A stretch of 56,131 nt of DNA, filler included, from Catajapyx aquilonaris (taxonomy: Eukaryota), in assembly GCA_000934665.2 (NCBI GenBank). It is 3 parts of 3 records of this genome, joined end to end, with 100 filler letters (N's around TTAATTAATTAA, not from the genome) between each part and the next. Parts side by side here need not be neighbours in the genome. Positions count along the whole stretch, not along the records: positions 1 to 18,610 come from JYFJ02006654.1; 2 more parts are not named here. One strand, given 5' to 3'. Below are positions 2,139-42,500 of the stretch, piece after piece. Positions within the stretch are counted from its first letter, which is position 1. Every line of letters begins with the position of its first letter. The notes beneath the pieces are model-generated. The model searched no databases and was not told the DNA's origin. It saw only the letters and a list, made by a program, of their open reading frames with translations. A program made the translations under genes and the position numbers.

Positions 2139-3437
2139 TTACTGGATGGTCAAGTTTTTAAATAAATTCAGGGCAAACTCGTGCGTTGCAGTTTGGAGAG
2201 ATATTACACTCAAAGCTACGTCGGGACGAGAACTTTTAAACAGAGCAATGGCCAGGCTTATCTTGTCAACACCGTTGCACTTCTCAACATGAAGAGACTT
2301 GACATTCGCCAACATGCAAACTAAATGGTGAAGGCCTTCTTCAGTGATTCTTGAGCAGCTAATGAAGGTCAGCTTGGTCAGAGCAGTGCATTTCCACATG
2401 GATCTCAGGCATGTGTCGTCAAAGTTGTGCGCGTATTTCAGTGTGAATGATTCCAGTGTTGAAGTCAAGTTTGGCAAGGAAAACAGTTTCGGAGAAACCA
2501 ACCAGGTCAGGAAGGATGGCTGCGAGAGTGTCAGATGCTGAAGATTTTCAAGGGAACCAAGTCCTTCAAGGGCTTTGTTGTCTGAGAATTTTAGTGGGAA
2601 GCGCACATCCAGAGCTTCGACCTGTGTAAATTGTGCCAGGGTCTGATATGGCTGCAATGACTCAAAGTCTCCAACTGTTAGCTTCTTGATTTGAAGGCCA
2701 GCAGCTGACGACAGCAGCTGGAGTTCTTCTTCCTCGTTATGCGAAGGACCGATGTGGACCTCGGTCAGGTTTGGCCAACTGTGCTTCAGAAAACCTGGAC
2801 GGAACCACCTCAGTTTTCCTTCGTTGTATGTAAGGAACATACTGGCGAGATGAGGAGCCACACACATGAGGTCCAAGAAGTGAAGACTGCCAGTTGGAAA
2901 TGCGCACAGGCTGATTGAAATGTGCGTCAACTCCCGGCTGTACATCTGAATCATCCATTTGGCTGTTTCTTCTCTCATGATCCTGATACGCCTCAGGTGC
3001 AGCGATGTGACGCCCGGAGCCAAGGTCTGGAGGGCAGACAAGATGCGATCATCTCCTGGCTTGACGAACTCCCAATATTCCAGCTCCAGCCTCCTGACGT
3101 GGATAATCCGTTCTCCATAAATCTGGAGCTGCCTCACCAACTGCTGGGCTTTGCTGATTGTTACTTTCCCATTCCATATGTTCCTGAAATTCCTTCCGTC
3201 GAGCTTCAGCTCCCTCCACAGTTCATGGTCGTAGGACAGCATCCTCCACTGCCTGCAAACTGGTGCCGCATTCTTCACCAGCTCATCTTTCGTCAAGTAG
3301 GAGAAGACCTTCAGTGTTAGCTCATTAGGCAAATGGGGTCTGTCCTCAGCCTGTAAACGGACAAAAAGTGTAAGCCCATGTTCTGCCATATTCTAATGAT
3401 CCACGCTTACCTGTTGTCCCTGGTCGTTGTCCCCCAT
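2139..3437 (-). CDS. F-box/LRR-repeat (FBXL-like) protein; exons 3437-3411 and 3350-2139
   Basis: F-box motif LPNELTLKVFSYLTKDELVKNAAPVCRQWRMLSYDHELWR followed by LRR-like repeats (LTKLTFISCSRITEEGL, VKSLHVEKCNGV). 27-nt exon MGDNDQGQQ|gtaagc and a 60-nt phase-0 intron ending tttacag join in frame. Confidence 0.88.
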
Positions 3438-4659: not shown

Positions 4660-5915
4660 ATGTCGTTGGGACTGAGGGTGAAGACGGAAGAACTGGAGGA
4701 AGGAGATGATGACAGCATAACGGTGGCGGAGACCTGGCAGCTGAAGAAGGAGGCGCCGTCTTGCTTTGAAGATGACTCTACGCTCATAGAGGACACACTC
4801 TGTGAGATCAAGAAGGAAGCAGTGGAAGAGGAGGAAGAGGAGATGGTGGTGGCCATATCCAGTGTGGTCGAAGATGAAGATGACCCATTAGCGATTGCGG
4901 TATGTAATCTGCTGAACTTGCAATACAGTTGTGCTGCAGTGACGCTCTGGCTTGTTAAGAAAGAGCAAAACTGCGGACGCAAATGTTAATATGCTGCATC
5001 AGGAGTAGTAGCAGTGTTTATGGAACAATGTATGGTGTAGCCAGTACAGTTAGTGATGTACTCTGATTCACGTTTCAGATTGTCCCAGAGACCACTGAGG
5101 ATGGAAGCGAAGAGAATGAGATCCATAAGGGAAGGAACATGGGAACAGGCTCTATGAGAAATGCGTTTGAGTGCACAATGTGCCAGAAAGTAACTGGTAC
5201 TCGGCATGAAATGGAAATTCACATGCTAATTCACACTGGAAAAAATTGTTGCCACATTTGCCAGAAACAATTTAGCACTCAAATTCGTTTGAAACTCCAC
5301 ATGAGAAGTCATGCGGGAGAGAAGCCATTCGTGTGTGAGGTGTGCCAGAAAGGATTTCTTGAAGAAAAGTATTTGAAAGTTCATATGCTAATTCATACGG
5401 GAGAGAGACCATTTCATTGTGACGTGTGCCAGAAAAGATTTCTTGCAGAAAAGTATTTGAAAGTTCACATGCTAATTCATACGGGAGAGAGACCGTTTCA
5501 ATGTGAGGTGTGCCAGAAAAAATTTGCCAAAACAAGGGATTTGAACCTTCACATGCAAATCCATACGGGAGAGAGACCATTTAATTGTGAGGAATGCCAG
5601 AAACAATTTAGTAGCGAAAGAGATTTGAAAGAACACAAGCGAATTCATACAGGAGAGAAAACGTTTCATTGCGAGTTGTGCCAGAAAAGTTATTTCCATG
5701 CATCTAGTCTGAATGTTCACATGCGAACTCATACGGGAGAGAGACCTTATCAATGTGAGGTGTGCCAGAAAACATTTCGTGAAGCAAGTAAGTTGAAAAT
5801 TCACATGCTAATTCATACGGGAGAGAAACCTTTTAATTGTGAGGTGTGCCAGAGAAAATTTCCTACTACGAGTCACATGAAACTTCACATGCGAAGAAGT
5901 CATACAAAAGAGTAA
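4660..5915 (+). CDS. C2H2 zinc-finger protein, copy 1 (acidic N-terminus, 9 fingers, ~358 aa); exons 4660-4899 and 5079-5915
   Basis: ATG 4660, donor gtatgt 4900, acceptor tttcag 5078, phase 0 in frame with the 5139 ORF; nine CxxC..HxxxH fingers with HTGERPF/HTGEKPF linkers. Confidence 0.92.
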
Positions 5916-7224: not shown

Positions 7225-10200
7225 ATGTCGTTGGGACTGAGGGTGAAGACGGAAGAACTGGAGGAAGGAGATGATGACAGCATAACGGTGGAGGAGACCT
7301 GGCAGCTGCCGTTGAAGAAGGAGACGCCGTCTTGCTTTGATGATGACTCTACGCTCATAGAGGACACGCTGCGTGAGATCAAGAAGGAAGCAGCGGAAGA
7401 GGAGGAAGAGGAGATGGTGGTGGCCATGTCCAGTGTGGTCGAAGATGAAGATGACCCACTGGGAGTTGTTTCTGGAAGGGTATGTAATCTGCCGAGTACT
7501 TTTCCATTTACTGATACCCACTACAGATAGTTCATGTAACTGCCTTATATTCTGTTATTCCGTGAAGATACTGCAAAAGGAGTAAAGCCGCGTTTACATG
7601 TGAGCTATGTGATCAGCGATGTTGCAGTGATTGCTGACCGATGAGACCAATCGTTTGGGGCGAAAATATGTTGTTACTTTCGCTCGGCGATGAGCCGATG
7701 ACATCGCCGATCAAATCGCTTGCGTGTAATTTGGCTTAAACAGTGTCACCAATAGAGATTTATATGCAGGGTTGGAGAGAGCGGGGGGCAGGGGGGGCAA
7801 AATTCCCCGGCCCACGTGACCCAGTAGTATTCGTCAAAAACTATTTGCTTTGATGATCAGATAGGGCCCTACCTGTATGGTAAAATTTTTAAGTGGGTAA
7901 TATTAATAAGAGATGAATTTCCTATTCTGTACCCTCCCAGTCTCAGTTGCTGGCGCAGAATGATCCTTCAGTGCTATGGCCAGAATAAAAAGTGAGACAC
8001 GATCGTCACTGGGGCAGCAGTGACTGAATTCCTTAGGAATGTTATGCCTCAATGCCACTCTTGCCCGAAAATTGAATTTCGAGGACGAATTTGACGAATT
8101 CGCCCATAGGAAGGCCAGAAAAGTTGAGTTAACCAAGTATTGAGCGTGGGTATGTCATATGTGCATCAGTGCATACAGGATATGGGACGATCAAGTCACT
8201 GAAGTATTTCATGTCAACATATTTGCCATCCTGGACCAATTACATACCGACACTACAAAATTTTCATAAGTTACCGGGTTATCGCTGCCTATAGTTCGCT
8301 CAAGAAGTCCGGTCACAAAAGAAGTCCTGGACAGAAGAGTGTTCCCACATTTTTTATACATAGGATTTTGAGCGTTTGGTGGATGAAACAATGTGCCAGG
8401 ACAGGCTAGTTCTTGCCCATTGGTGGAGAGAAAAGTGAAAGGTGATGACCACAAAGAGAAAAGAAGAAGGGGGAGACGGGGTGGGGGGCTCGTGGCCACA
8501 CCTTTTGTGACCGGACTTCTTGAGCGAACTGTAGCCATCTGTAATTATATATTTGCGCGGACAGTAAATACAGCCTATTACTGATTATTAGAGTCCAGAT
8601 CTATTCATTTCGTAAGTGCAGGATGTGGAAAATGTAGGTTTTATAGTTTTAAAATGGCCTATTTCGTGGTTTTGGGAACTCTTTTGCCTATTCTGGCTTT
8701 TTGCGACTTTTTTCATGCCAATTTGGCCTTTTTTGAGATAGTTTTTGAAGTTTTTGAAGCAATTTTGGGACTTTTTGGGCCTGTTTCTTCATAATTATGC
8801 ATGTTTGGTTTTTTTCGGAGTATTTTTTGTGCCCATGAAAGGACCAAAATTGTTCAGAAGTAATACTATGAATCATGTTTATGTGACGCGTAACATGCCA
8901 AATATTTTTCTAAATTTTCCTCTGATTGTTCCAAACAGAGGAAAATTTAGAAAAATGTTTGGCAACATATTGTGCAAGTGGAAACTGACATCCTTAGTGT
9001 GTTGTTTGGACTTCATGCACATGCAATATGCGCCATGTTACAGGTACGCCAACATTGTATAGGCTTAATTATTGCAAAGGTAACTACCAAATCAATGATG
9101 AGTCACTCCTATGGAAAAGTATTTCATAACCCGAGCAACGCCAGGTATCCTGCTAGTTTAAGTGCCTGTTTGAGGGTTTTTTCATGCCTAAAAATCCTGA
9201 GACTACCGATTATGTTTCTCGATATAATCACAATGCCTTTTTCTCAATTTAGAACGAAAATTTGTTCCTGTCACTGTCTGTACTATTCGAGCGAAGGTGC
9301 CCCGAATCTTTGTCATCCCTGGATCGGCCCGGCTAGACCTCTCTCTTCGGCCCTGTTTATATGCGTCGAAGTATGGTTCCAGGAGAGTGTATGGGGCAAA
9401 TTGGGGTCAGAAATGGAGTTGCCCTTTGTGTTGGTGTTCAATGCTAGCAATAGGGCGAGTTAGGCGCTTATTGTGGGTTTCGATTCCGCCAACAATGCGG
9501 TCCTCATTGTGCATCGCAGTCCAACGAATGTTATTGTGACTTTGACAACCGCGAACCTTAGCTACAAATAGGCAGCCCAAGAAAAGACTGCATGGCCACG
9601 TGTGTTTTTTTTTTTAATTGCTTGGCAAAGCCACAATAATGTTCATTGGCCTGCTGTGCACCATGAAGACAGCAGGCCAACGAACATTATTGTGGCTTAG
9701 CCCATTAATTTTTTAAACCCCCATTTGGCCATGCAGTCTTTTCTTGAGCCACCTCTATCTAGCTAAAGTTCGCAAAATTTCACTTCATTTGTGCTCTTCT
9801 ATTCTGATGGGCATAATATCATTATGAGTATCAGTGAACGGTTAACAAGTTTGTATTCAGTACAGTTAATGACGTACTCTGATTCATATGTTTCAGACAG
9901 TCCAAGAGACCACTGAAGAAGGAGCAGAAAGGAAAGGGATCAAGAAGGGAGAATGCTCTAGAAGAAATACATTTGAGTGCACAATATGCCAGAAAGTAAC
10001 TGGTACTCGGCATGAAATGGAAATTCACAGACTAATCCACACTGGAAAAAATTGCTGCCACATTTGCCATAAACAATTCCGTAATCCAAGTAGTTTGAAA
10101 GTCCACATGCGAAGTCATGCGGGAGAGAGGCCATTCATTTGTGAGGTGTGCCAGAGAAGTTTTCTTGAAGAAAAGTATTTGAAAATTCACATGCTAATTC

Positions 10201-10886
10201 ATACGGGAGAGAGACCGTTTCATTGTAAGGTGTGCCAAAAAAAATTTCTTAGTTCTTGTAACTTGCAAATCCACATGCGAGGTCATACGGGAGAAAAACC
10301 TTTTCATTGCGAGCTATGCCAGACAAAATTTGGTAAAGCAAGTAGTTTGAAAGTTCACATGCAAATTCATACGGGAGCGAGACCCTTTAAGTGTGATTTG
10401 TGCCAGAAACAATTTTGTAATGAAAGTGGTTTGAATCAGCACATGCAAACTCATACCGGGGAGAGAACTTTTCAGTGCGAGGTGTGCCATAAAAAGTTTT
10501 TCCATGCATGTAGTTTGAAAAGTCACATGCGTATTCATACGGGAGAGAAACAATCAGTTTGTGAGGTGTGCCAGAAGAAATTATGCGATTCAAGTAGTTT
10601 GAAAGTTCACATGCGGAGTCATACGGGTGAGAGTCCATTTCAATGTGAATTGTGCCTGAAAAAATTGTGTAACGCAAATAGTCTGAAAAATCACATGCGA
10701 AGTCATACGGGAGAGAAACCTTTTCATTGCGAAGTGTGCCAGAAAAAATTTAACACTTCAAGTAATTTGAAAGATCACATCCGAATTCATACAGGAGAGA
10801 GACCGTTTAATTGTCAGGTGTGCCAGAAAAAATTTCACACTTCAAGTCATTTGAAAGGTCACATCCGAATTCATAAGCCCAAGTAA
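7225..10886 (+). CDS. C2H2 zinc-finger protein, copy 2 (acidic N-terminus, 11 fingers, ~414 aa); exons 7225-7479 and 9897-10886
   Basis: Exon 1 nearly identical to copy 1; donor gtatgt 7480, acceptor tttcag 9896, phase 0; eleven C2H2 fingers. Confidence 0.9.
7585..7738. mobile_element. Short degenerate MITE, possibly PIF/Harbinger-like
   Basis: aagccgcgtttacatgtgagc ... gcttgcgtgtaatttggctt imperfect terminal inverted repeats with TAA-like flanks. Confidence 0.4.
8292..8531. mobile_element. Tc1/mariner-type MITE in the ZF2 intron
   Basis: ~30-bp TIR agttcgctcaagaagtccggtcacaaaag / cttttgtgaccggacttcttgagcgaact, with TA on both flanks (8290-91, 8532-33). Confidence 0.85.
8626..8690 (+). repeat. 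Dispersed repeat end shared with 52461-52525
   Basis: tggaaaatgtaggttttatagt..taaaatggc.tatttcgtggttttgggaact.ttttg occurs at both loci. Confidence 0.75.
9551..9773. mobile_element. Foldback MITE in the ZF2 intron
   Basis: gcgaaccttagcta..caagaaaagactgcatggcca / tggccatgcagtctttttcttg..tagctaaagttcgc, with inner arms aagccacaataatgttc.ttggcctgctgt / acagcaggccaa.gaacattattgtggctt. Confidence 0.8.
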
Positions 10887-11129: not shown

Positions 11130-11256
11130 TCCTGATTGGCTCCCGCCTTCGAAAGACCACGCCCACTAAACTCGCTCTATTTTTCAACTTCCGGCCACGT
11201 CACTTCCGGGCCACGCCACTTCCGGGCCACACCACTTCCGGGCCACGCCACTTTCT
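11130..11256 (+). promoter_or_regulatory. Putative housekeeping-type promoter of the GLYR1-like gene: CCAAT box plus four tandem ETS/GABP-type ACTTCCGG sites
   Basis: ctgattggct at ~11132; repeat cacttccgg(g)ccac x4 with ~15-bp period, ending ~60 bp upstream of ATG 11313. Confidence 0.65.
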
Positions 11257-11312
11257 CCTTCAGGTTCGTCCTTTTGTGGCTGCGTATCATTCGTTCTTTC
11301 GTTGGAGTAATA

Positions 11313-14300
11313 ATGGCTAGTGGAGGACAAGGCGTTTCCAGGAAGGACAGGGTGAGGCTGAGGAAGGATCAGGATTCCGACGAGGTACTGAGATAATCTT
11401 GGATTAGCTACATTCTGTACAGAGTATGTCAACATAATAATGTTGCTTATTATTACCTTCAGAGAATGTATGAGACAGGGAACGGTAAGATCCGTGTGGG
11501 AGACATAGTGTGGGGAAAGATTGGGGGTTACCCCTACTGGCCAGGGACTTTCTCTGGGTTGGACCAAGAGAAACTGGCCAAAGTCTCCTTCTTCGCCGCC
11601 AAGACCTGTGGCTTCCTGAAACTCACAACCGTAAGGCCCTACCGGACTCACAAGCCGGAGGCGAGGGATTTCAAGGGTCACAGGGGGCTCAAGGAGGCCA
11701 TCAAACAAGCGGAAGAGTACATGAGAACTAAAGAGCCAGTGACCCAAGAGGGTGAGGATGATGCAGAGGGTTCAGTGGATATAAGGACCATGACGGAGAC
11801 GCTCAGAGAGAAGAACATACAGGTAACGATGCAGTACCACTTGCTGTGGTCCTCAGGCCAATTGCATAAGCATCATAAGTCATGGTGAATTATTATCTCC
11901 CAGGTCAAATATGCAAATAGCATGTTGGTTGTCTTTTGCAAGCCACAATACCTAGGAAAATGGTTTAATTTTTTCATCAATCACTTTCATAAATTATGTA
12001 CGGTAGAGGGTTAATTTCCGCCTTTCATGTCTACAAGCCACAAATGGCACTACCATTATCAAATTAAAAGTTGCATTGTCCGGTAGGATTATCAGCATTA
12101 ATTGAGTGAACATCAACACCGATTTATGTGACTGGTACAGCCTTGCAACATTTTAATCATCTGCGACTGCAACATGTAATAAGAGAGCCATGTGAATTAT
12201 TGAAGGTGTTAATGTACTCAATGTATGTATTTTTTCCAATCCAGCCTTCTCAGCTCAAGATTGGATTTTTGGGCCTTGGCTTGATGGGATTTGGTATTGT
12301 CAAGAACCTTGTGAACTCAGGTCACAAGGTCATGGTCTGGAATCCTGCCCTTGATACATGCCAGGTGTTTGTGGAGGCTGGGGCAGAGCAGGGGAAGACA
12401 CCTTCCGAGGTGGTCCAGTCGTCGAATGTGACCTTCAGCTACCTGGAAGATCCCCATGCAGCTAAAGAAATTGTGTTTGGGGTTGACGGTGTCCTGAAGG
12501 ATGTGACTGCGGGCAAGGGTTACATAGAAATGACTTGGATGAAGCCAGACATGAGCCGTGAGATAGGGGCGGGCATTACAGCCAAGAAGGGAAGATACTT
12601 GGAAGCACAGGTCCTGGGGAGCAAAGAGCAGGCCATGGAAGGGACACTGGTGGTAATTGCTGCAGGGGACTACTCCTTGTTTAAACACTGCGAGACTTGC
12701 TTCCAGGTAAAGTTGTGTTACATTTTGAAAGGTCTAGCCTCTTGCATGAGACAACATGAGGTCTGTTCCTCTTCCAGGCAATGGGCATCGACTCGCTCTA
12801 TGTTGGTAAGGTACTAGGAACAGTCTCCATGATTTACCTGTTCCTCCAGCTGTACGGTGCAGTTATGCTGACTGCCACAGTTGAATGCATGTCCATGGCA
12901 GTCCAAATGGGCTTAAAGGAGGAAGATGTACTGGGCATTATCAAACTCACTTCCCTGGCCTGCCCGGCTGCTCTTGAAAACATGGGAGCCGTGATTGATG
13001 GAAGCTTCGTCTCCACCCAACTGGACCGCATGCTGACGGACCTGAAGATAGCCATTTCCATAGGCGATCAGACGAGTCAGCCAATGACAACTACTATTAG
13101 GGCCTACGAAGCTATTAAGCAGGCCATGCAGAATGGCCGCATGAAGTACAAACCATCACCTGTCAAGGTAGGCGCACCCTTACTATGCCGCATTAATTTT
13201 AAATTTTGTCTGACCTACCATTTTTTTTATTGTTGGGGTGGTTAGAAGCGCCGGTCAACCTCTGCAGGTCATTCTCTGGCCATCAGATATCAGCTGGGCA
13301 ATGGCTCAGGAGATGGGGCAGCATTGATCATCCACCACAACCAGCCGCATATATTCTTAAACCTGCCTACCCTACCTAATGTGATAGCCGAACCAGAACT
13401 TGTGCAGTTAGATGTGAAGACTATCACTGAGAGACTTCGAGAGTTGAAGTTACAGGTGACAATGCAACCTCATTTCATACCTGCAAGGCAAAAACAATGT
13501 GTCATAAATTTTTTACTTCATTTCAGCCATCTGGCCTCAGGATTGGATTTTTAGGACTTGGCTTGATGGGTTCCGGAATGGCAAAGAATCTTCTAAACTC
13601 AGGTCATAAGGTCATGGTTTGGAACCGCACACATGGAAAATGCCAGGTGTTCGTGAAGGCTGGGGCAAAGCGGGGGCGGACACCTTCCGAGGTTGTCCAG
13701 TCATCAGACGTGACCTTCAGCTGCCTGGCTAACCCTCAAGCTGCCAAGGAAGTGGTGTTTGGGCCTGGTGGTGTCCTGCATGGTATGGCTGAGGGAAAAG
13801 GTTACATAGAAATGACCGGCATGGACCCAAATACCAGCTGTGAAATAGAAGACGCCATTATCGCCAAGCAAGGAAGGTATCTGGAGGCACAGATCCAGGG
13901 GAGCAAATCACAGGCCGTGGAAGGGACGCTGGTCATAATTGCTGCAGGGGATCAGTCATTGTATAATGACTGCCAGACATGCTTCCAGGTAAGGTTGCTA
14001 ATGACTGTTGTCTGAACTGTTACTGCATCTTGAAAATTGTGGTATTTGACATAAACATGGAAATGAGACAATATCTTCTTCCAGGCCATGGGCGACAACT
14101 CCCTGTACTTAGGTGCTGAAGTGGGAACGGCCACCAATATGTATCTAGTCCTTCGTCAGTATGCCGCAATTATTCAGGCTGGTTTAGCAGAGGGCATGGT
14201 TTTGGCCGACGAGGCAGGAGTAACTCAAGACCTTCTACTGAAGGCCCTAGGAGTCACCTCCATGGCATCCCCCTCTGCTCTGGAAAGTATGCAACTGGTG

Positions 14301-14498
14301 ATTGAAGGATTGAGTGGCCCCTCCCAATATATGCTGCAGCACATGCAGAAGGACCTGAAGCTGGCCATCACCATGGGGGATCAGACGAACGTCCCAACTC
14401 CAATGTCTTTTGGGGCCTACGAGCTTTTTAAGAGGGCCATTAAGGCAGGCTACTTCAAGTACGATGCATCAGCACTCTACATAGCAGCTCGCTTTTAG
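11313..14498 (+). CDS. GLYR1: GLYR1/NP60/N-PAC (NDF)-like protein: PWWP plus two tandem beta-hydroxyacid dehydrogenase-like domains (~789 aa); exons 11313-11384, 11463-11822, 12245-12706, 12778-13167, 13246-13455, 13527-13988, 14085-14498
   Basis: PWWP GDIVWGKIGGYPYWPG..KVSFF..AIKQAEEY. Both DH repeats match N-PAC signatures (IGFLGLGLMG, GH.V.VWN, TPSEVV, YLEAQ, LVIIAAGD, CFQAMG, DLK.AI..GD); DH2 ends DASALY. All six introns are GT-AG, phase 0, and the joined frame is open. Confidence 0.88.
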
Positions 14499-15902
14499 TG
14501 TAGCAGATGTAAGATACACCACCTGCTTCCAGTGTTTACTTTTTTCCCCCCCCTTAAGTTTGGTTAAAGGATATTTCCATTACGTGTGAGACAACTTCTC
14601 TACTTTTTATTATCATGTCATCAAAAACCAAGGACTCTGAATCATGATTTTTGAAATATACATATTTGCATAATATTTGTTCATTGATGACTAAAGTTTT
14701 CTAACAGTGGCCCAAAGAAGTTGGTGAAAATAATATTTCATTGTTGAAAACATCACATACGTGAGAGTTTAAGTCCACATCTACAAAACATAACTGCTCA
14801 ACAGCAAATAAACTTTAGTCATCTTTAAATGAAGAACAACTCAGAAAAAATGTAATCGTATAATCATCGTGAGTTTATAATGGCAATAAATCACTACCTC
14901 AAAAGTTATTTGAACTGGCGCACATCACATCCTACTTTTATTTTTCATTAATGCAACCAAGATGCCCATATCTGTTAACCATATTTTCATGTAGCCTCCT
15001 GATCTACCTTGTTTTACAGTAGCACATTTCTCAGTGTGTGAAAATATGGAATGTACCAAGTGAAATAGCAAAAATATGTATTATTATGAAAACATCAACC
15101 AAAAGTTATGATCCTACCTCACATTATTAATATATCTTTCGATATTTGCATTTTGGGAAAATTTGTGTCCACCCACTGTACCGGTCGAAGATTTCAATCC
15201 GAAATGAACAGTATTTTCATGAAGCCTCCTGTGGGAGTCACAACCATATTATGGTTGTGACTTTTGTTATGAGCAAATTAACTGGCTGTATTAAATGAAA
15301 ATAAATAATTCCAACAATGGAGGACATTCTTAAAAAGGACATCGAATGTGTAAAAATGCTACAGTGCTCAGCACTCTTTGTCCTGCGACTGCTTCTCCAC
15401 TCATTACTTTGGTATGAAAATTTTTGTCAAGTGAAATTAAAATGCCTTCCTTCCAGTCTTCCTTGGTTTGAAATGAAGAGAAAATTAATTAGTTCAAGGG
15501 TAAAGTCCCACATTGTATATCAATTATTTTTTAATCATATCAATTTTAGTGAACAATTTGCACTTCAAGAAATTAAACATCTACAATACCCAAAAAAAAC
15601 TACATTAAAATCTGTAGCACCTATACTGTGACCATTTCAAATGTGAAAAAAAATTGCAATTTTGCAATTTTCAAGCCCAGCGGAAAATATTGAACTTCAC
15701 CTATTTGTGTAATATTGTTAGGAACATATTCCATTAAAAAATATCATGCAGCAGTTTCCTAAGCAGTAAATGGGAGTGAATCAAGCATAAAGCAGCAGAT
15801 GAATTGAGAAAAAAAACAAACGCAAGTATTACCTGAGTTTCTAAAAATATATGCATCTCCTTTTTCCTGTGCCGTGATTCTGATCAATGGGAATGTCTAC
15901 AA

Positions 15903-18610: not shown

Positions 18611-18710
18611 NNNNNNNNNNNNNNNNNNNNNNNNNNNNNNNNNNNNNNNNNNNNTTAATTAATTAANNNNNNNNNNNNNNNNNNNNNNNNNNNNNNNNNN
18701 NNNNNNNNNN
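18611..18710. other. Assembly gap (N44-TTAATTAATTAA-N44 artificial linker)
   Basis: Same 100-nt construct at 37305-37404; the 12-mer puts stops in all six frames. Confidence 0.97.
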
Positions 18711-18860
18711 GACAGGAGGTTCAGTGACAGGAGGTTCAGTGACAGGAGGTTCAGTGACAGGAGGTTCAGTGACAGGAGGTTCAGTGACAGGAGGTTCAGT
18801 GACAGGAGGTTCAGTGACAGGAGGTTGTGTGACAGGAGGTTGGGTGATAGGAGGTTGGGT
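18711..18860 (-). repeat. 15-bp coding minisatellite: 3 TQPP(I/V) plus at least 7 TEPPV units
   Basis: gacaggaggttcagt x7, then gacaggaggttg(t/g)gt units. Confidence 0.95.
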
Positions 18861-20564
18861 GACGGGGGGAGGAGATATGCATGGACAACCGTTCCAGGCT
18901 GTGCCCCTGACACTAATCACAGGCCCGAGATCCCATAGGAAGTCACTCGCGTTGTAGAAGGGGCCATTTCTGTCTATCGTCATGATAACCTGCATCGGTC
19001 GACCCATGTGGCTCATGAACTGATATATGTCTGCTCGGAGTAGTTCGTCAGCTGCCTTTTGACGGTACTTGTCGGCGAGTATGGTATAGTTCTTTATCAA
19101 AATGTCCGGAAGACCACTGTTGTATTCGGCTGATCGGACCTTCCTCCACCGGAGCTTTTTTGTCTTGTCCCCTGCGTCATTCACAATAGGTTTGAGCAAG
19201 CCGCGTTCTCTTCTGCATGTCTGGAAGTCCTTCTGGCAGATAAACGTCGAGTTCTGCATGCATGTCTCGTCCATCCAACCGTCGTATTCTCCAAACAGTC
19301 CCATCATGCAATGCTGCACTCCATCCCGGTTGTCCGGCTGACCTTTGGCCCAGAAATGACCTCGAACAGGAGTCAGGGTCGATTCCCACACCCACTTGCC
19401 CTCGTCACCCAGGTCGGTTCCTCCCAGCCAACTACTACCAGCCTGATCTATTAATATAATAACACACTTAATATGATATATGAACTCGTATTAGATACTT
19501 AGGGCCATTCTAATACAAAGGCCCATATCTTGTGATTTTTGTGGAAACGCATGACAACGATAATATGGGCAATAAAAAATATTTTGAAGTATTATTGTGT
19601 TAATCGTGTTACTCTCTGCAAGTTATGATTCTGAACTGGACAATTTAATATAAGGTGGGCTTACAGCACTGAAACCCCTCTCCAGCTTTAATACAGTCCG
19701 GCTTTCAACTACAAAAATCGACAAAAATTGTCAAGATCTTAAATATTACGTAAATCACTAACAAAACTGATAATAATATTAATCTTTGTTAAAACCAATG
19801 TTTCTCTGTAAAAGTACAGTACCTCTGTATCAAGTCTGTGTCAATGGTCCGTTATTAGTACGTAGATAATAGTTTGATTAGTAGCCATCTTATTTGCAGG
19901 CTACCGGTACCGTACCTTTAATATCATATAATACCGAAGTCATAACAGCACTGTCTTATTGGCAGAGAAATGAAAATCGCTAATGTCACATGAGCTTTTT
20001 ACACATCATTTCAGTTAGTGTTGAGAGTTTTCAAATAACTGGTAAAATATCACAGTCACAATGTAACGTTCAAAGTAGTGGTATGCAATATAGTGTTGAA
20101 AGTGTGATGAGTATAACTTATTTATCTCTGTAAACATCATTCTATAGTGCTGATTGATATTTTTGTGGAAATTGACGTAGACTAATCATCAATTATAAGG
20201 TTATGGCAGGATAGTTCAATATTATTATTGGTTTGGCCAACTCAGAGCATTTTTATGATATAGAGTGAGAACAGTTTAATAATTCAGGCAAATCTCTATA
20301 CTCACTTATTTGAAGTTCATTCAATGAATCAATTTCTTCCCTGGTTTGAGGCGTTGCCAAAACAGACCCAATTCGCCTGCAGTATTCCGCGGCCAAGAAC
20401 CAGTTTATCTTAAATTCGGTTGAAATGTAGTAGCATAGTCCTGTAGGTGTCCTAGAGAATGGTCTAGGACATTCGTGGTCTGCAGTCAGTGCAAGTGCCA
20501 ATGACATCATTGCATAAATGGCAAACGGGACTAGAAGGCCAGCCATCTTGTGTGTTCTCGCCAT
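18711..20564 (-). CDS. Secreted C-type lectin/mucin protein, copy A (3' part lost in the gap); exons 20564-20306 and 19447-<18711
   Basis: Signal peptide; CPRPF..GLCYY..NWFLAAEYCRRIGSVLA; WLGGTDLGDEGKWVW..WAKGQPDN..QHC..WMDETC..FICQ = CTLD with QPD; then (TEPPV/TQPPV)n up to the gap; phase-1 intron. Confidence 0.88.
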
Positions 20565-22358: not shown

Positions 22359-25300
22359 TTAGTAATCTGTCGGTACTGGGTTTTTAGTCCAGGCTGTCGG
22401 TTCTGGGAGAATGTAGTCTCCTGTCGACAGATCCACAGAACAGACGAATGATCGCACATGTTCACAATTCCCACCAACCCTCCTCATCTCTGTGGCAGTA
22501 AATTCTAGCATAAGGCAGGCCTCAAATTCTGTAAGCTCTGGCATTGTGCCACCCATTGTATTCAGCTCGGCTGTGCTGCCATCGGTGATCCACTTCCAGT
22601 GGGCAGTCTTTCCAATGTAGAGAAGACCTTCCAGTTTACCTGTAAGATGCCAGAAATGGCATCATGCTCGAGAGTAAATAAATGCAATGCACTCACTGTT
22701 GAGACCGTACTCCTTTATGGCAAGAACGTCTAATTCTTCACGAGGCTCTGCAAGAATTCCTCCCATGTTCTCGCAATGCGTGATGGACTCGTTGAATGTG
22801 GCCTTGAACTTCCCGCTGAAGAGATAGCAGGTTCCAGAGACCAATTGGACAAACCGGGGAGGACAGCAGCTGAGAGGTGGTTTCGGTGGACGGGAGCTTG
22901 TCGACGGGCCTTCAGAAGTGGATGGTGAAACAGTAGTATTCATAGTGGTGTCAGGACCGGTGGTGTAGTCAGGTGGTGCAGGAGTTTTAGTTTGTTGGGG
23001 TGATTCAGTGGTGGTAGTATCAGGGCTGGTGGAGTAAGGATCAGTGTTGGGGTAAGGACCGGTGGTGGAGGATTTAGTGGATCTAGTCCCAGGAGGATAA
23101 TAAGTGGTGGTAGTATCAGGGCTGGTGGAGTAAGGATCAGTGGTGGGGTAAGGACCGGTGGTGGAGGATGTAGTAACGGGAGGTTGTGTGACAGGAGGTT
23201 GTGTGACAGGAGGTTGGGTGACAGGAGGTTGGGTGACAGGAGGTTGTGTGACAGGAGGTTGTGTGACAGGAGGTTGAGTGACAGGAGGTTGGGTGACAGG
23301 AGGTTGGGTGACGGGGGGAGGAGATATGCATGGACAACCGTTCCAGGCTGTTCCCCTGGCACTAATCACAGGCCCGAGATCCCATAGGAAGTCACTCGTG
23401 TTATAGATGGGGCCATTTCTGTCCATCATCATAACCTGCATCGGTCGACCCATGTAGCTCATAAACTCATACATGTCTGCCCGGAGTTTGTCGTCAGCTG
23501 CCTTTTTACGGTACGTGTCGGCGATCATGGTATAGTTCTTTATCAAAATGTCCGGAAGACCAGTGTTGTATTCGGCTGATCTGACCTTCCTCCACCGGAG
23601 CTTTTTTGTCGTGTCCCCTGCATCATTCGCAATAGGTTTGAGCAAGCCGCGTTCTCTTCTGCATGTCTGGAAGTCCTTCTGGCAGATAAACGTCGCGTTC
23701 TGCATGCATGTCTCGTCCATCCAACCGTCGTATTCTCCAAACAGTCCCATCATGCAATGCTGCACACCATCCCGGTTGTCTGGCTGACCTTTGGCCCAGA
23801 AATAACCTCGAACAGGAGTCATGGTCGACTCCCACACCCACTTGCCCTCGTCACCCAGATCGGTTCCTCCCAGCCAACTACTTCCAGTCTGACCTATTAG
23901 TTGTATATGGATTAGAAGTTTAATGCCATTCTAATACAGAAAGCCATACTCTTTTTTGTACCTTGTGATTTCAGTGAATACTCTTGACAATGATGAGTTA
24001 TTATGAGTTCCTTTGTTTCACTGTGCACAAGTTTTTCTGAATAGGATTATTTAATACTAAGTAGTAAAGTAGGTATAGTAAAATCTGTCTGTAGTGCTCA
24101 AGTAGCCTACATTCCGTACAAAAATCGTTAATAACAAATGTAAATTATAGTAACCTACCGTGCTAAAATTAACTAAGAACCCTTCATCTGGACTAATTAG
24201 TCTTCTGTTCCTGTACTTCTGTGTGAGGTCTGTTTTCAATGGCCTGCTAATAAGTGGATAAGCGTTTGGTTAACTGCACTGTCTTAATCCCACCAAAAAC
24301 ATTTCTGTAAAAAAAAAGGCCAAGTTCTCCTGAGTCCTGACTGCTTGGCCGTCAAGAGTGGTGAGATCTGAAATACGGCCAAGTTCAACGTCGATGTCAA
24401 TTACTGGTATTCTCAACTTCTTCAACCTAAACCACTAACTTGGTTTTTTCAGGTCGACCTTAAGTTTAATCATCGAAAAATTTTAATGGAATTTCTCTTG
24501 CTGTAACTTGGCCATTGCTCATGTCCGAGGTATTGTTGAATTCTACAACTGTTTCAATGTTTTAAGAGCAATGGCCAAGTTACAGCAAGAGAAATTATTT
24601 CTCTTGCTGTAACTTGGCCATTGCTCTTAAAACATTGAAGCAGTTGTAGGGCGCAAACTGCAGGAGATAGCGACACATGGTTTTCGGATTCGGATTCCTC
24701 GTGGCCAAAATAGGCTCCATGGCCAACTTCCGGTGACCCACCACTTCCGGTTTTCGGGGTTCATTCTATCCGACAAAGTCAGTTTACCTGGCATATCCAT
24801 TGGCAACGGGAAATGAGACTGACTACAATCAGTGTTATTATTATCCCATTAGAATCGCATCGCATCATATCGTATCGGGTTTGTCAGCCTCATTTCCCAT
24901 TGCCCAATGAAAAAATGTATATTAGAATCACGCTCTCGTTATTTGCCATTCTTGTTTTATTCTTTGTCAAGTTGACCTGTCCTGAGCAGATAGGACTTTG
25001 TCACAAGAACATCCTGACTGAGTAAGCCAATTAATTAGTTTATAGAAGACGCGTATGTTCAAGCAGCTCTCCAATGCTTTACAGATAATTATAGGCTACA
25101 CTGTGAAAACCGTTATAATCATCCAGGCATTACGTATCTCTATACTCACTTATTTTGAAGTGTTCACTCAACGAATCGATTTCTTCCCTGGTTTGAGGTG
25201 TTGCCAAAACAGACCCAATTCGCCTGCAGTATTCAGCAGCCAAGAACCAGTTTGTCTGAAATGCGGTTGAAAAGTAGTAGCACAGTCCTGTAGGTGTCCT

Positions 25301-29755: not shown

Positions 29756-32438
29756 CTATAAAAATTCGTTGTATAACTTGAAACTCGTCTTCATCCTTGA
29801 CGAGGGACTTATCATTGGCTTTTCGATGGAGGTTTCTAAGCCCGGAATGACAGGTATTGGGACGTCTCTTTTTCTTCTGGCCCCTGAGTTTTTTGATTTA
29901 ACAGAGCAGAGAAATGAACGGTTCTCATCGCAATTTCCAACAATCGACGACATCTCATCGGAGTTAAATCCGAGACTGAAACACGCATTCACGTCGTCAG
30001 AAGGCGTCAAATTCACTTTCAATATGGAAAGATCAACCATGCTTCCATCACTGATCCACTTTAAACTTGCAGTTGCGCCGATGTAGTAGTTATCACTAAT
30101 GTTTTCTGGAAATAAGATTCAATGATAAGACAGTAAGCCTAACACTTCGGTGCTAAAATAATTAATACAGAAGGGAAAATTATTATAGTTCGAGCAGTAC
30201 AAAATAATGGGGAAGTAAAAATCGTATTGTAGTGTCCAGTTACAGTGCAAAAGCCACACCTGAGGAGACCCAAAAGACTTACCATTTATCGCGTATTCTC
30301 TTATGGCAAAAAGTTCGGTTGTGTCACGAGGTTCTGCCAGCATTCCTCCCAGATATTTGCAATAATTGATAGTATTTTTGAATGCGCCCTTGAAGCCTTT
30401 GCTGAAGTAATAGCAGGTTCCAGAGACCAACGGGACAAACCGCGTAGGACAACATCCACAGCAGGGTGGTACCGGCGGACGAGAAGTTGTAGTTGGGCCT
30501 GTTGGTTCACTGGTTGGAGCTGAAGAGCTGGTAGTTTCACCGGTTGAAGGTGACGAGCTGGTAGTTTCACCGGTTGAAGGTGACGAGCTGGTAGATTCAC
30601 CTGTTGAAGGCGACGAGGTGGTAGTTTCACCTGTTGAAGGTGACGAGCTGGTAGATTCACCGGTTGAAGGTGACGAGCTGGGAGTGGAAGTAGTAGGGTT
30701 TGTGGTAGTGGGGATAGTAGTAGTGGTGGTGGTGGTGGTGGTAGTGGTAGTGGTAGTGGTAGTGGTACTAGGCGGTGGTGGAGGAGGGGGAGAAATGCAT
30801 GGGCAACCGTTTTTCCACCCCCTAGGCTCAATTGGCCCAACATCCGATTGGCTATCGTTATATTGATAATCTATCAGAATCTGGATAGGTCTGGCTATGT
30901 AGTTATTGAAGTCGTACATGTCTGCTCGGAGTTCGTGATGGTCTGCCCTGAGCATATGCATGTTGGCACGGAGGTCAAAGTCGTTCGTCATCAAATTTTC
31001 TCCGCGGCCAATGTTTCCTTCTGCTGATCTGACCTTCCTCCAACTGACTTTGCTTAACACGTCACCCACAATAGGTTTAATTAATCCCCGTTCTCTTCTG
31101 CATGTCTTGTAGTCTTTCTGGCAGACAAAAGCTGCCTTTCGTAAGCATGTCTCGTCCATCCAACCGTCATAGTTTCCAAAGAGTCCCATCATGCAATGTT
31201 GCACTCCATCCAGATTGTCCGGCTGACCTTTGGCCCAGAGATGACCTCGTACAGGAGTCAGGGTTGACTCCCACACCCACTTGCCCTCGTCACCCAGGTC
31301 GGTTCCTCCCAGCCAACCTCGTTCAATTGGATCTATTACAGTAATAAACCCAGACTATTATATATAACAATGCAGGCTTATTTTAATTATTGTAACAGTT
31401 TCGCAAATAAAATTTTCTTAGGATCATTTGGGTATGTCACTCTAAAACCATTCCCAAATATTCAAGTTGCATTTTTTTAAAGTGGGGAAGGGTCAGTTTA
31501 AAACATGCTGACGTGTGTAGGCTAATAATCAATTTCATTCAGAATCTGCAGCTGTGACTGATATACATGTTTCAATCTGTTTTAGTAGTTTGAGTTGCAT
31601 TAAAATATTATTCCCTGGGTACAGAGTTAATTTTAGCAACTCAATCTAAGATGTAGAATCAGGTGAGTTGTCGGATTTGTTGCGTTTCTTTTAATTGGCA
31701 AAATTAGGACTGTATTAAACCCCGTCAATTTTTTTTTGCTGGCATATAATCGTGGCTCTAGCTTAAATTCAGTGAGTAAATGCGGCTACAAACAGAGAAG
31801 AATGATGTTGTCACAAGCTTTACATAAATTCTTCGTTACATTGTTGACTTTGTTGGAAGTAATTTTTGCCATTGTGACGCTTGTACTTTTCTTTGTTTGC
31901 GGCTACAACAACGAAGCAACGTATCGTATAATTTATTTGCTGTTTTCATTATAGGCGTAACTCCCCATGTTCATATTATTGTGGCTACAGCTGCATAAAA
32001 GTAACAATATACTACATATACATATAAGTCAAGACTTTCCCACAGAAAGGAAAATGCAGTTGAACAAATTCGCGCGCTATTACTTTCCTGTATTTCCAAT
32101 TTAATACGAACCAGGACTTATGTTCCACGATAATTCTAATTACTCAAGTTATAGTGGTAGTGATATTCAACTTCATGTAAAACATTGCACTCACTTATTT
32201 TGAAGAATTCATTCAGCCCGTCAATTTCTTCTTTGGTTTGAGGCGTCGCCAAAACAGCTCCAATTCGCCTGCAGTATTCAGCAGCCAAGAACCAGTTTGT
32301 CCTATATGCACGTGAAAAGTAGTAGCACAGTCCTGTAGATGCTGTCCTTGTGAACGGCCTGGGACAGTCCTTGTCAGGTAGTACAAGTGCCACTGGCATC
32401 ACCACACAAACAACAACCGTTAATAATAGGTTTTCCAT
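29756..32438 (-). CDS. Secreted double C-type lectin domain mucin-hinge protein, copy C; exons 32438-32195, 31332-30283, 30105-29756
   Basis: Same exon phases and CTLD1 as A/B; hinge is poly-Pro, poly-Thr and (SSSPSTGE[S/T]T)n; CTLD2 followed by a tail with RRKR. Confidence 0.9.
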
Positions 32439-39543: not shown

Positions 39544-42500
39544 CTTAGGGAAAGCGAGGATAACTCCAAGGACAAATATGGGCACGGTGCTCTGGGTCAG
39601 TCGGGTGCTCACTATCTGCTTATCATCACTGTGCTCGTCCTCAGGTGGCCAGAGTGTGTTCTTAAATGTTGTCCATAACTGCAACAAATCTCACTTGTGC
39701 CTCAACAAGATTCTCCTTGTCAAGCACTAACCTTTTTAGATGTCAAGTTGTCACCCAGCATCCAACACAAATGATTGTACAAGTCAATCCATGCCAAAAT
39801 GACATTCTGGTGGTTCATTGTCAACTTCACATGCAACTTTGTCAGATCTATAAAGAATTCATCACACAGCCAGTCCAATTCAGGCCATGATTGCCACTCG
39901 TCCTGAGCAAAGTGCTGGTTAAAAGCAGAGACCAATCTGTGTATGCTATCACCCCAATAAGTGGACAGATCTTGAAGAGGATTTTGAAGCTCTGGGAATG
40001 ATGGAACTGAAAGAATCATAAGAATAAGATTTGCTCAGCCTTTGCAATTTTATGACATACCTCCATTATGAGGCATTTGAGCCTCCCAATCAAAAGGTGC
40101 CTTCTGTCCAACAGCCAAAAATATGAATGAGGAAATATTCTTCAACACCGTCACGAGCACTGAAATCATCTGCTCTGTGACACTGATGCCCACTTTGACA
40201 GTCCCAGATGGCCCCCTTGTATTCATTTCCTGCAGCAATCGAGCAATGCATGTTAAATTCATCAAACTGGCAATCGAGAGAGCAATCTTTACCTTTATAA
40301 CACCATCAAGAAGACCCAAGATGCTTGCCACAAATGGGTCAAACAACCTATTAAGTTCCAATGCCCAAGCAGCAAGAACTGGCACCAGCAATTCAATTGC
40401 AGAAGTTCTCACACCCTGTGTTTGGTCTTGAATGGCAGCCAGTGCAAGTTCTAGGCATGTGCCAAACTTGTTCTCATCTCCCACATACACAGTGACAAGG
40501 GCTAAGCTCTTCACTGCGGCCTCCCGCACTTGTTCATCTTTGTCTTCCAAGAGCATTTGCTGGAGCATGCTCAACATCAGAGAGTTGCGAATTGCACTCT
40601 GAAATGTAACTGCAGTCATAAACAAAATACACTACAAAGATATGCATACCCACAGAGGTGAATGGAGCTAGTACACTGCAGGCCTCAGCCACTAGCAACC
40701 TTCGTTCAGTATATCGATGACTAATTTGCTCCCAACACTGAGGAAGCAGTTCAGACTCGACACAATGCAGACCTAAATGTTGTGCAATGCTTAGGAAACC
40801 TGAAAACAAGATTACACGTTGTACAAAAGTTGCTTTGTATACTGTTTATACTATACAGGGTGAAGGGAAACTCGCAGACAATCGCCAGGTAGACTGATAG
40901 TACTCATAAAACTAATATAGGGATGTGCAATTAGTTTTGGGCGCCGTAGCGTAGTTACCGCATATGGCGCCGTTAATAGAGGGCCGGACGGTAAAATATG
41001 AGGTAAAAATGATAAAGTGCACAGATGTCACACCCGGATTCTTACTCTGACAGGATTTGATCACTTATTGCACATGAATGATGTGTTACGGACCAAGGTT
41101 GGATTATTCGGAGGCCCTCGAGCTGACTTTTGTTTCTTTGAAGCTGGCGGAACGGGTGACGTCACAAAACTTTGACGGTGCCATACGTAGTAACTATGCA
41201 ACGGCGCCCAAAATTAATTGCACATCCCTATATTAGTTTTACGAGTACTATCAGTCTACCTGGAGATTGCCGCCCATTAAGAAATAATAACTGTATTAAA
41301 TTTCACTGCAGGGACTCTCTGTTTTGATCTTTCTGAAACTGATGTAATCACAAAAGGAAAAAAAATGGAAATCACACAAAATGCCCTGATCTCTCCACAG
41401 CCAACACAATGCTAAATTAACCTTAAGAGCAGGCAATATAAAATTTCCCTGGCATCATAAGAGGCAAAACATCATGAACCAGCACACCTGTAAGAATCAT
41501 CTGACGGTTGTCCTCATCTGGACGCTTGATCAAATTAAACAAAAGGTTGAGCAACACATCTCGAGTCTTCACATGTGGGTGAAGGTTAATGGTGCACACT
41601 ATCAGTGGAATTAGTTCCTATAAACAAGAGAAAACATTATTACAAAATGGATCGATGGCAGTGCTTCCCAAACTGTGGGTCGCGACCCCATTTGGGGTTG
41701 CGAAAATAATATTTGGGGTCACGAGGGAGGGTTACAAATTATTTTCCCGAAATGATGCTAAATTTTTTGAAAATTATGACCATAAGGTAAGTCATTTGAC
41801 TGTTTACCTGTCTTTTCATGTTGGCGGATCGAAATGTGCACATATAGGGGATCGCAAATTTGACAAGACGTTTCTTTGGGGTCGCCAACGAAAGAAATTG
41901 GGAAGCACTGATCTATGGTGTCACACTAGTTGAATATGCTAATTATGATCACTTTTCTGGGGAGACAAAAGGTATTGTGTGCAATACTTTTTTGCTTTGG
42001 GAGCAATATTCTAATACCTTCAATTGATTAAGCAGGATTTTAAAAATATCATTGACAGACAGTTAACACACTGCAGTGGCAATTTTAATTCAACCAGATA
42101 TAACTGGGTATTTTAAAAGGAATTTTGGTCACATATTGTGGCTTTTACTAAAATGAATGAATGAACGACAATCAGTGATATGTAACACTAATAGTTCCAC
42201 TGCCAGTCTTGTAAAATTTTATTTCATGTGAATGCAGGTTTTATTGCCAAAAATTAACAAAAGTCTCATGTATTTATTTTTTTACAATAATTCAAAATCT
42301 TTTCAATTCCTTTGCAAGAGAAATGCTGCACAAGAAAAGGTCACAGACCACTTTTGCTGCACTGCCAAAAGATTGCAAAAAGAGAAGATAATGCTGCCAC
42401 AAACCTCTCTCTTATTCAATATCACATTCGGCACAATGTGAGGTAAACATGCACCCAGCAACAGCACCACTTTGTCTGATGTCTCAGTGGAAGCAGCCAA

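Follow-up and report, generated by a model that had tools for sequence, protein, structure and literature searches.

The locus at positions 11313 to 14498 (+ strand) of the stretch of Catajapyx aquilonaris DNA analysed here (assembly GCA_000934665.2; 56,131 nucleotides (nt) with filler, called the window below) raises the question of whether a chromatin-reading protein can come to carry two inactive dehydrogenase domains in a single chain. As predicted from its sequence, the locus is a PWWP gene with a duplicated inactive dehydrogenase (DH) domain, an arthropod relative of N-PAC/GLYR1/NDF. The best reading appears to be a single fused gene with a product of 789 residues, which is given a probability of about 0.6. 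When spliced, seven exons form one frame of 789 codons in which the sole stop is terminal. All exon lengths are divisible by 3 (phase 0), and the six predicted introns are short, 71 to 422 nt, each running GT..AG, with 12 of 12 splice sites of the seven-exon model intact. The elements of the model are given below, where DH1 is the dehydrogenase unit of exons 3 and 4, DH2 is the unit of exons 6 and 7, and a slash marks a splice junction.

11313-11384, + strand, 72 nt: exon 1, the start codon and 24 codons, with donor GAG/gtactg.
11463-11822, + strand, 360 nt: exon 2, the PWWP, a short acidic linker and a pre-domain segment (..VDIRTMTETLREKNIQ).
12245-12706, + strand, 462 nt: exon 3, the Rossmann half of DH1 (NAD_binding_2, E 5.2e-31).
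12778-13167, + strand, 390 nt: exon 4, the helical half of DH1 (NAD_binding_11, E 1.2e-9), with donor AAG/gtaggc.
13168-13245, + strand, 78 nt: intron 4, predicted from sequence, GT..AG, with CTGAC about 33 nt ahead of the acceptor.
13246-13455, + strand, 210 nt: exon 5, the bridge, 70 codons without a Met.
13456-13526, + strand, 71 nt: intron 5, carrying an ATG at 13497 that is in frame with exon 6.
13527-13988, + strand, 462 nt: exon 6, the Rossmann half of DH2 (NAD_binding_2, E 2.2e-37).
14085-14498, + strand, 414 nt including the stop: exon 7, the helical half of DH2 (NAD_binding_11, E 1.9e-13), with the family-typical C-terminus ..YIAARF.
14807-14890, + strand: the first AATAAA signals 3' of the gene, at 14807 and 14885.

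A preliminary description of this DNA had proposed seven phase-0 exons joining into a single open frame of about 789 amino acids (aa), one PWWP followed by NAD_binding_2 and NAD_binding_11 twice, and a 210-nt exon at 13246-13455 linking the repeats without a stop. All three were reproduced, the frame as 789 codons and one stop and the domain content by Pfam. The start of exon 1 is the first ATG within the open frame 11136-11396, and no Pfam family matches exon 1 or exon 5. Exon 2 matches the PWWP family (PF00855) with an E of 2.2e-9 and 38.1 bits (cut-off 25.6) over profile positions 1-92 of 93, and tblastn with the canonical N-PAC PWWP finds exon 2 at 31% identity (E 2.6e-9). The exon 2 PWWP can be aligned to the canonical one, from which it differs by a loop about 11 residues shorter. 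The aromatic positions within its motifs GYPYWPG and SFF correspond to the canonical ones in this alignment.

Placement of the gene within the N-PAC family is supported by searches with exon 6, the copy closest to canonical N-PAC. Among 2042 candidates, 1585 proteins matched exon 6 at E <= 1e-10. The best 120 of these 1585 are mostly arthropod proteins named N-PAC, GLYR1 homologue or nucleosome-destabilizing factor; the arthropod N-PACs are 61-68% identical over 154 residues, mostly 470-630 residues long, and possess a PWWP. Neither the window protein nor a close orthologue was present in the protein collection, where the top identity to exon 6 was 68% among the matches listed. Among solved structures, the one that exon 7 matches best is human N-PAC (2uyy, E 5.1e-19). 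A quick maximum-likelihood tree was built from 29 dehydrogenase domains, without row P0131, in which the anchor motif is missing. It groups DH1 and DH2 as sisters (Shimodaira-Hasegawa-like approximate likelihood ratio test (SH-aLRT) support 100) on a stem of 0.49 within the arthropod N-PAC group. Their end branches are 0.82 and 0.39, respectively, compared to a median of 0.17. The identity to arthropod N-PAC and the tree placement bear out the earlier assignment as an N-PAC/GLYR1 (NDF) homologue, and the long stem points to a fast-evolving paralogue more than to the only orthologue. Within the window, DH1 and DH2 are the only dehydrogenase units that match canonical N-PAC by tblastn. No relatives of the DH1 helical half were found among 374 candidate proteins, and none of 115 metagenome-contig pattern matches was confirmed.

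Canonical N-PAC/GLYR1/NDF proteins, such as human GLYR1 and Drosophila CG4747, share with the window protein an N-terminal PWWP followed by a NAD_binding_2 plus NAD_binding_11 unit without the catalytic Lys. They possess one such unit, whereas the window gene has two in tandem if the predicted splicing is assumed. In addition, the window protein has about 144 residues ahead of DH1, compared to about 220-300 ahead of the domain in aligned canonical proteins, and its units are on much longer branches than the N-PAC orthologues. N-PAC/NDF proteins bind H3K36me3 and nucleosomes, destabilise nucleosomes and stimulate elongation by RNA polymerase II (PMC6004073, PMC8973848, PMC12112590), and the fly NDF is composed of a PWWP and an inactive dehydrogenase domain (PMC6004073). 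No recognisable counterpart of the vertebrate-type AT-hook or LSD2-binding linker is found in exon 2 or exon 5. According to the available part of PMC6004073, the fly NDF is also without both, so neither defines the arthropod family.

Both units are predicted to be scaffolds rather than enzymes because a Tyr takes the place of the catalytic Lys. In HMMER alignments, DH1 and DH2 each have this Tyr at the catalytic Lys column of the active enzymes 3doj and 3pdu. The same column corresponds to the second Met of the motif in human 2uyy and is Asn in 8 of 8 aligned canonical arthropod proteins, so that the window units differ both from the human protein (Met; PMC13144531, in part) and from arthropod N-PAC. 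In human N-PAC, the available part of the same source describes replacement of the catalytic Lys by Met437 and a domain that is inert and binds NAD(P)H (PMC13144531). The glycine-rich nucleotide-binding loop is kept in both window units, as GLGLMGFG in DH1 and GLGLMGSG in DH2. The WNRT motif is kept in DH2 and reads WNPA in DH1, with loss of the Arg. The active beta-hydroxyacid dehydrogenases, including the plant glyoxylate/succinic semialdehyde reductase 3doj and the 3-hydroxyisobutyrate dehydrogenases 3pdu and 3pef, belong to the same two-domain fold family by sequence and share the glycine loop. In contrast, the window units have Tyr for Lys, lack the WNRT Arg in DH1 and are fused to a chromatin reader. 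An analogy is provided by CtBP, a transcriptional corepressor acting in chromatin regulation, where a dehydrogenase fold has likewise become an NAD(H)-binding scaffold for oligomerisation (PMC13144531, in part). CtBP, however, belongs to the D-2-hydroxyacid dehydrogenase superfamily and has neither a PWWP nor a tandem duplication.

The two units are the product of a genuine intragenic tandem duplication of moderate age. DH1 and DH2 are identical at 158 of 291 aligned columns (54%), with the Rossmann halves encoded by exons 3 and 6 more similar (106 of 154, 69%) than the helical halves of exons 4 and 7 (52 of 137, 38%). At the nucleotide level, blastn recovers two matches within the locus, one of 12242-13158 to 13524-14471, at 68.9% over 953 columns (E 3e-109), and one of 11778-11833 to 13411-13466, at 71.4% over 56 columns (E 0.002). 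The latter match consists of the duplicated pre-domain segment, the last 45 nt of exons 2 and 5, and the first 11 bases of the following intron. The introns of DH1 and DH2 interrupt the same codons (..Q/PS.. and ..CFQ/AMG..), and intron 3 can still be aligned to intron 6 with a score reached by 0 of 300 shuffles. Thus, the paralogy of exons 3 and 6 (both 462 nt) and of exons 4 and 7 with identical intron positions, and the duplication of the pre-domain segment, as the preliminary description had them, were recovered. Synonymous divergence (dS) between the copies is about 0.6-0.7. The copies are about 69-77% identical at the nucleotide level, far too diverged for an assembly or haplotype artefact. 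Exons 3 and 6 are of the same length without an indel, while the paralogous introns differ (71 versus 96 nt and 422 versus 71 nt). The ratio of nonsynonymous to synonymous divergence (dN/dS) is 0.27-0.32 for exons 3/6 and 0.73-0.80 for exons 4/7; for the pre-domain segment it is 0.19 over 17 codons, too few for a test.

The edges of the duplication lie near 11778/13411 on the left and near 13158/14471 on the right; the 243 nt between them comprise intron 4 and 165 nt at the 5' end of exon 5. No nearby DNA matches this segment above shuffles, and the origin of the 165 nt is not traceable. Derivation of intron 4 and the 5' part of exon 5 from the old 3' untranslated region, exon 1-2 sequence or intron 2 was rejected, the local alignment scores being reached by 237, 412, 343 and 285 of 500 shuffles. 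The canonical N-PAC linker was likewise rejected as a source of the 165 nt, with Smith-Waterman scores reached by 46 of 300 and 60 of 300 shuffles. A profile of this linker without the pre-domain segment did not match exon 5, despite KRRSTS-like motifs that seem collinear in a MAFFT alignment.

As a separate observation on the paralogous introns, introns 2 and 5 both carry an in-frame ATG in the pyrimidine tract a few codons ahead of the Rossmann exon (12200-12244 and 13497-13526, + strand). The frame is MYSMYVFFPIQ/PS.. for intron 2 and MCHKFFTSFQ/PS.. for intron 5, and retention of either intron would give an N-terminally intact stand-alone dehydrogenase-like frame.

Whether the two units are joined in one protein depends on how DH1 ends and how DH2 begins. 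DH1 ends in ..KYKPSPVK on the donor of exon 4, without the conserved C-terminal tail and stop that are present in DH2 and in 8 of 8 aligned canonical proteins. When intron 4 is read in frame, 25 residues are added before a stop, TAG at 13243-13245, which overlaps the acceptor AG and confirms the read-through stop at 13245 noted earlier. The codon score of intron 4 is -0.55 bits per codon, which is non-coding-like, and its G+C content (GC) is 0.385. Neither AATAAA nor ATTAAA occurs between 13100 and 14806. Exon 5 scores -0.002 bits per codon in frame 0, compared to -0.44 and -0.33 in its other frames and -0.047 for exon 2. This score is reached by 2 of 2000 shuffles, and that of the 5' 165 nt alone by 26 of 2000. 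No stop interrupts exon 5 in the frame that runs on into its neighbours on either side, which is also true of 517 of 20000 composition-matched shuffles. The GC of exon 5 is 0.49, versus 0.32-0.42 in the introns. Both the pre-domain segment in exon 5 and the intron 5 donor are conserved with their counterparts in exon 2 and intron 2. The first Met in spliced exons 5-7 lies inside the GLGLMGSG loop and, given that exon 5 has none, DH2 would need the upstream exons. For DH1, a neutral simulation found a 284-codon frame still open in 3 of 5000 runs at 0.3 substitutions per site, with indels uncounted. The DH1 frame seems to have been kept under selection, implying that DH1 is probably translated, and in that case only the fused frame lets it terminate without the non-coding-like tail.

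The TAG that falls exactly at the proposed acceptor could also mark the end of a first of two adjacent genes. PWWP-DH1 would then stop in intron 4, and DH2 would be expressed separately from ATG 13497 with exon 5 as an untranslated leader. This ATG inside intron 5 is the sole usable start for a stand-alone DH2; translated from it, in frame, the product would have about 301 residues and begin just ahead of the first strand. The databases do hold stand-alone proteins of about 290-350 residues, some of them 63-65% identical to exon 6. Nonetheless, two genes are quite unlikely here. The gap between DH1 and DH2 is just 359 nt, and no poly(A) signal follows until 14807. Five other ATGs, all out of frame and located at 13301-13462, precede 13497, and the longest frame from any of them is 30 codons. 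Moreover, the read-through tail is non-coding-like, while exon 5 is coding-like in the frame continuous with both of its neighbours, and not only the donor but also the acceptor of intron 5 is conserved with intron 2. The pyrimidine tract of intron 2 has in-frame ATGs as well, so such an ATG is no sign of a start.

The sequence upstream of exon 1 also bears on the number of genes, through one further feature:

11201-11242, + strand: three exact CACTTCCGGG copies, one every 16 nt, 70-110 nt ahead of the start codon.

These copies lie inside a longer repeated unit (..GGCCACGCCACTTCCGGG..). In the 56 kb, CACTTCCGGG occurs as the three exact copies here and as two one-mismatch copies elsewhere; 1.18 are expected, and 0 of 100 shuffles reach 5. 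The motif is presumably an ETS-type GGAA core on the other strand, in which case the copies would be tandem sites of a housekeeping-style promoter. The region 11201-11242 is likely the promoter of the gene. The promoter-like triple is found only upstream of exon 1, which favours one fused gene.

A single gene could still use the two units as alternative cassettes, with exon 2 joined to exon 5 or 6 to give PWWP-DH2, or with DH1 only, so that the 789-residue chain would be rare or absent. In arthropods, duplicated exons are commonly used in a mutually exclusive way. All exons are in phase 0, which keeps every skip in frame, and joining exon 2 to exon 6 recreates the canonical junction ..NIQ/PS... 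This form of expression is judged unlikely, since a DH1-only message would be without a clean stop or poly(A) site, and DH1 seems to be kept open under selection with its only tail-free termination through exons 5-7. The arrangement itself, two-exon blocks with a coding-like bridge between them, is also not that of adjacent alternative exons.

The rate of change in DH1 raises another explanation, in which this is a decaying lineage-specific duplicate. The whole locus or its DH1 half would be becoming a pseudogene, and the open bridge frame would be a leftover. Consistent with decay are the long stem and DH1 branch, the high dN/dS of exons 4/7, the loss of the WNRT Arg in DH1, and the lack of an orthologue in protein and contig searches with exon 6 and the DH1 helical half. 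Decay nevertheless seems very unlikely for a locus that retains 789 codons without a stop or frameshift and all twelve splice sites. Exons 3 and 6 have stayed equal in length while their paralogous introns differ, and a neutral frame survived in so few of the simulations even without counting indels.

Several observations weigh against the fused gene itself. No relatives of exon 5 were found among 34 longer-protein candidates, and none of 598 metagenome-contig pattern matches was confirmed. The exon 5 acceptor has a G-rich stretch directly before its AG, and this AG lies within the in-frame TAG, so that retention of intron 4 would end a PWWP-DH1 protein. The in-frame ATG 13497 could start a stand-alone DH2. 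With every exon in phase 0, skipping of DH1 or of the bridge would likewise give in-frame isoforms. Finally, with exons 4/7 close to neutral in dN/dS, constraint on part of DH1 may be weak. On balance, the proposal of a single chain with one PWWP and two pseudo-dehydrogenase domains holds in part: the two dead units derived by intragenic duplication stand, and for their union in one chain the sequence favours the fused frame.

Under the fused-gene reading, the locus would be a single transcription unit, a fast-evolving gene of the N-PAC/GLYR1/NDF type. A tandem duplication copied the end of its linker and nearly the whole pseudo-dehydrogenase domain. The first copy, DH1, would have lost its last residues and stop codon and would now end on a splice donor, which is predicted to join in phase 0 to the 70-codon bridge exon and then to the second copy, DH2. 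The predicted product of 789 residues would consist of the PWWP, DH1, a linker of about 85 residues that includes the Gly/Ser-rich start of exon 5, and DH2. DH2 appears to have stayed near canonical N-PAC, and the helical half of DH1 to have diverged fast.

The dehydrogenase domain of human N-PAC forms a four-leaf-clover tetramer, a dimer of dimers, and the M437K variant is monomeric, as stated in the available part of PMC13144531. By analogy with the canonical domain, in which the tetramer is built from dimers, the simplest arrangement, and a probable one, would be a DH1-DH2 pair formed within the chain. The four-domain core would then take two chains and carry two PWWP readers, where the canonical core has four. 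With so long a linker, pairing between chains or open polymers would be just as permissible. Fast change in the DH1 helical half would fit an interface freed from self-complementarity. It is possible, though doubtful, that a homo-oligomerising chromatin scaffold became, through the duplication, an obligate asymmetric covalent pair with a remodelled DH1 interface and a two-chain core in which the PWWP readers are halved. In such a pair, DH2 would keep the canonical surfaces and the nucleotide pocket. In DH1, freed by the tether, the helical interface would have been reshaped (dN/dS about 0.75) and the NADP-type Arg lost, and two non-equivalent faces for partners would arise.

The architecture was compared with known proteins by an exhaustive phmmer search with exon 6 against 1.84 billion representatives, which gave 21048 matches at E <= 0.001, of which the best 150 were examined. 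No PWWP protein with two dehydrogenase units is among these 150. A double N-PAC-like protein would lead the list by summed score, and none does, the top match having 209.8 bits in one stretch. Since each representative is the proxy for a 50% cluster, the search would not detect a double form whose cluster is represented by a single-unit protein. Two matched stretches occur in 9 of the best 150. Four of the nine are true double units without a PWWP (P0176, P0208, P0209 and P0259; 609-724 residues), P0168 and P0245 are single units, and the remaining three, of 289-391 residues, are too short for two units. The four double chains are from singleton or three-member clusters and include a partial gene model from taro, perhaps the result of merged predictions; all four may be real fusions or merged gene calls. 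In P0208, each half matches another enzyme, one tartronate-semialdehyde reductase-like and the other 3-hydroxyisobutyrate dehydrogenase-like, and no tandem chain is among its 27 PDB matches. These rare tandem beta-hydroxyacid-dehydrogenase chains resemble the window protein in having two full NAD_binding_2 plus NAD_binding_11 units per chain. They differ in lacking the PWWP that the window protein has, and are 28-35% identical to it over exon 6. Tandem fusions without a PWWP thus exist, if rarely, and a doubled dehydrogenase chain is not in itself unprecedented. In the literature, no paper was found that describes a PWWP protein with two dehydrogenase domains, and the available part of PMC3457860 describes only the combination of a PWWP with a single dehydrogenase. 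Many known proteins with this architecture would have spoken against its being new, and the best 150 contain none. Therefore, the earlier view that the architecture is undescribed stands for the PWWP protein with two dehydrogenase units but not for doubled dehydrogenase chains as such. As a side observation, P0098 (675 aa), a metatranscriptome-type N-PAC relative, combines ubiquitin-family domains (PF00240, PF11976), as given in its precomputed Pfam list, with a PWWP and a dehydrogenase unit, and so has a further architecture that is uncommon for the family.

The surroundings of the gene hold several other frames. Directly upstream of it are two multi-finger C2H2 zinc-finger open frames (5067-5912 and 9873-10883, + strand), the second of which ends about 430 nt before the N-PAC-like start codon. 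On the - strand, three long frames (18666-19490, 22665-23930 and 30122-31354) each hold the final part of a C-type lectin domain together with a tail that is proline-rich and extensin-like, and look like a small tandem family of lectin-mucin-like genes. Pfam also identified the following frames:

886-1440, - strand: a ubiquitin-like frame.
2142-3392, - strand: an F-box frame.
40053-40631, - strand: a HEAT-repeat exon.
50255-51334, + strand: a FAM69/PIP49 kinase-like frame.

The case is limited to one locus in one poorly sampled arthropod lineage, and probably to a fast-evolving paralogue. As a fused gene, it would be a clear example of gene fusion in which a stop codon was bypassed by a new splice donor after tandem duplication. 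The dehydrogenase core sets the number of PWWP readers and partner-binding linkers per particle, according to the available part of PMC13144531. If the asymmetric pair is real, this arthropod would possess a natural asymmetric factor of half valency, which could be used to test the need for four-fold symmetry and four readers in nucleosome destabilisation. It would constitute a natural experiment on reader valency and pseudo-enzyme symmetry in NDF function.

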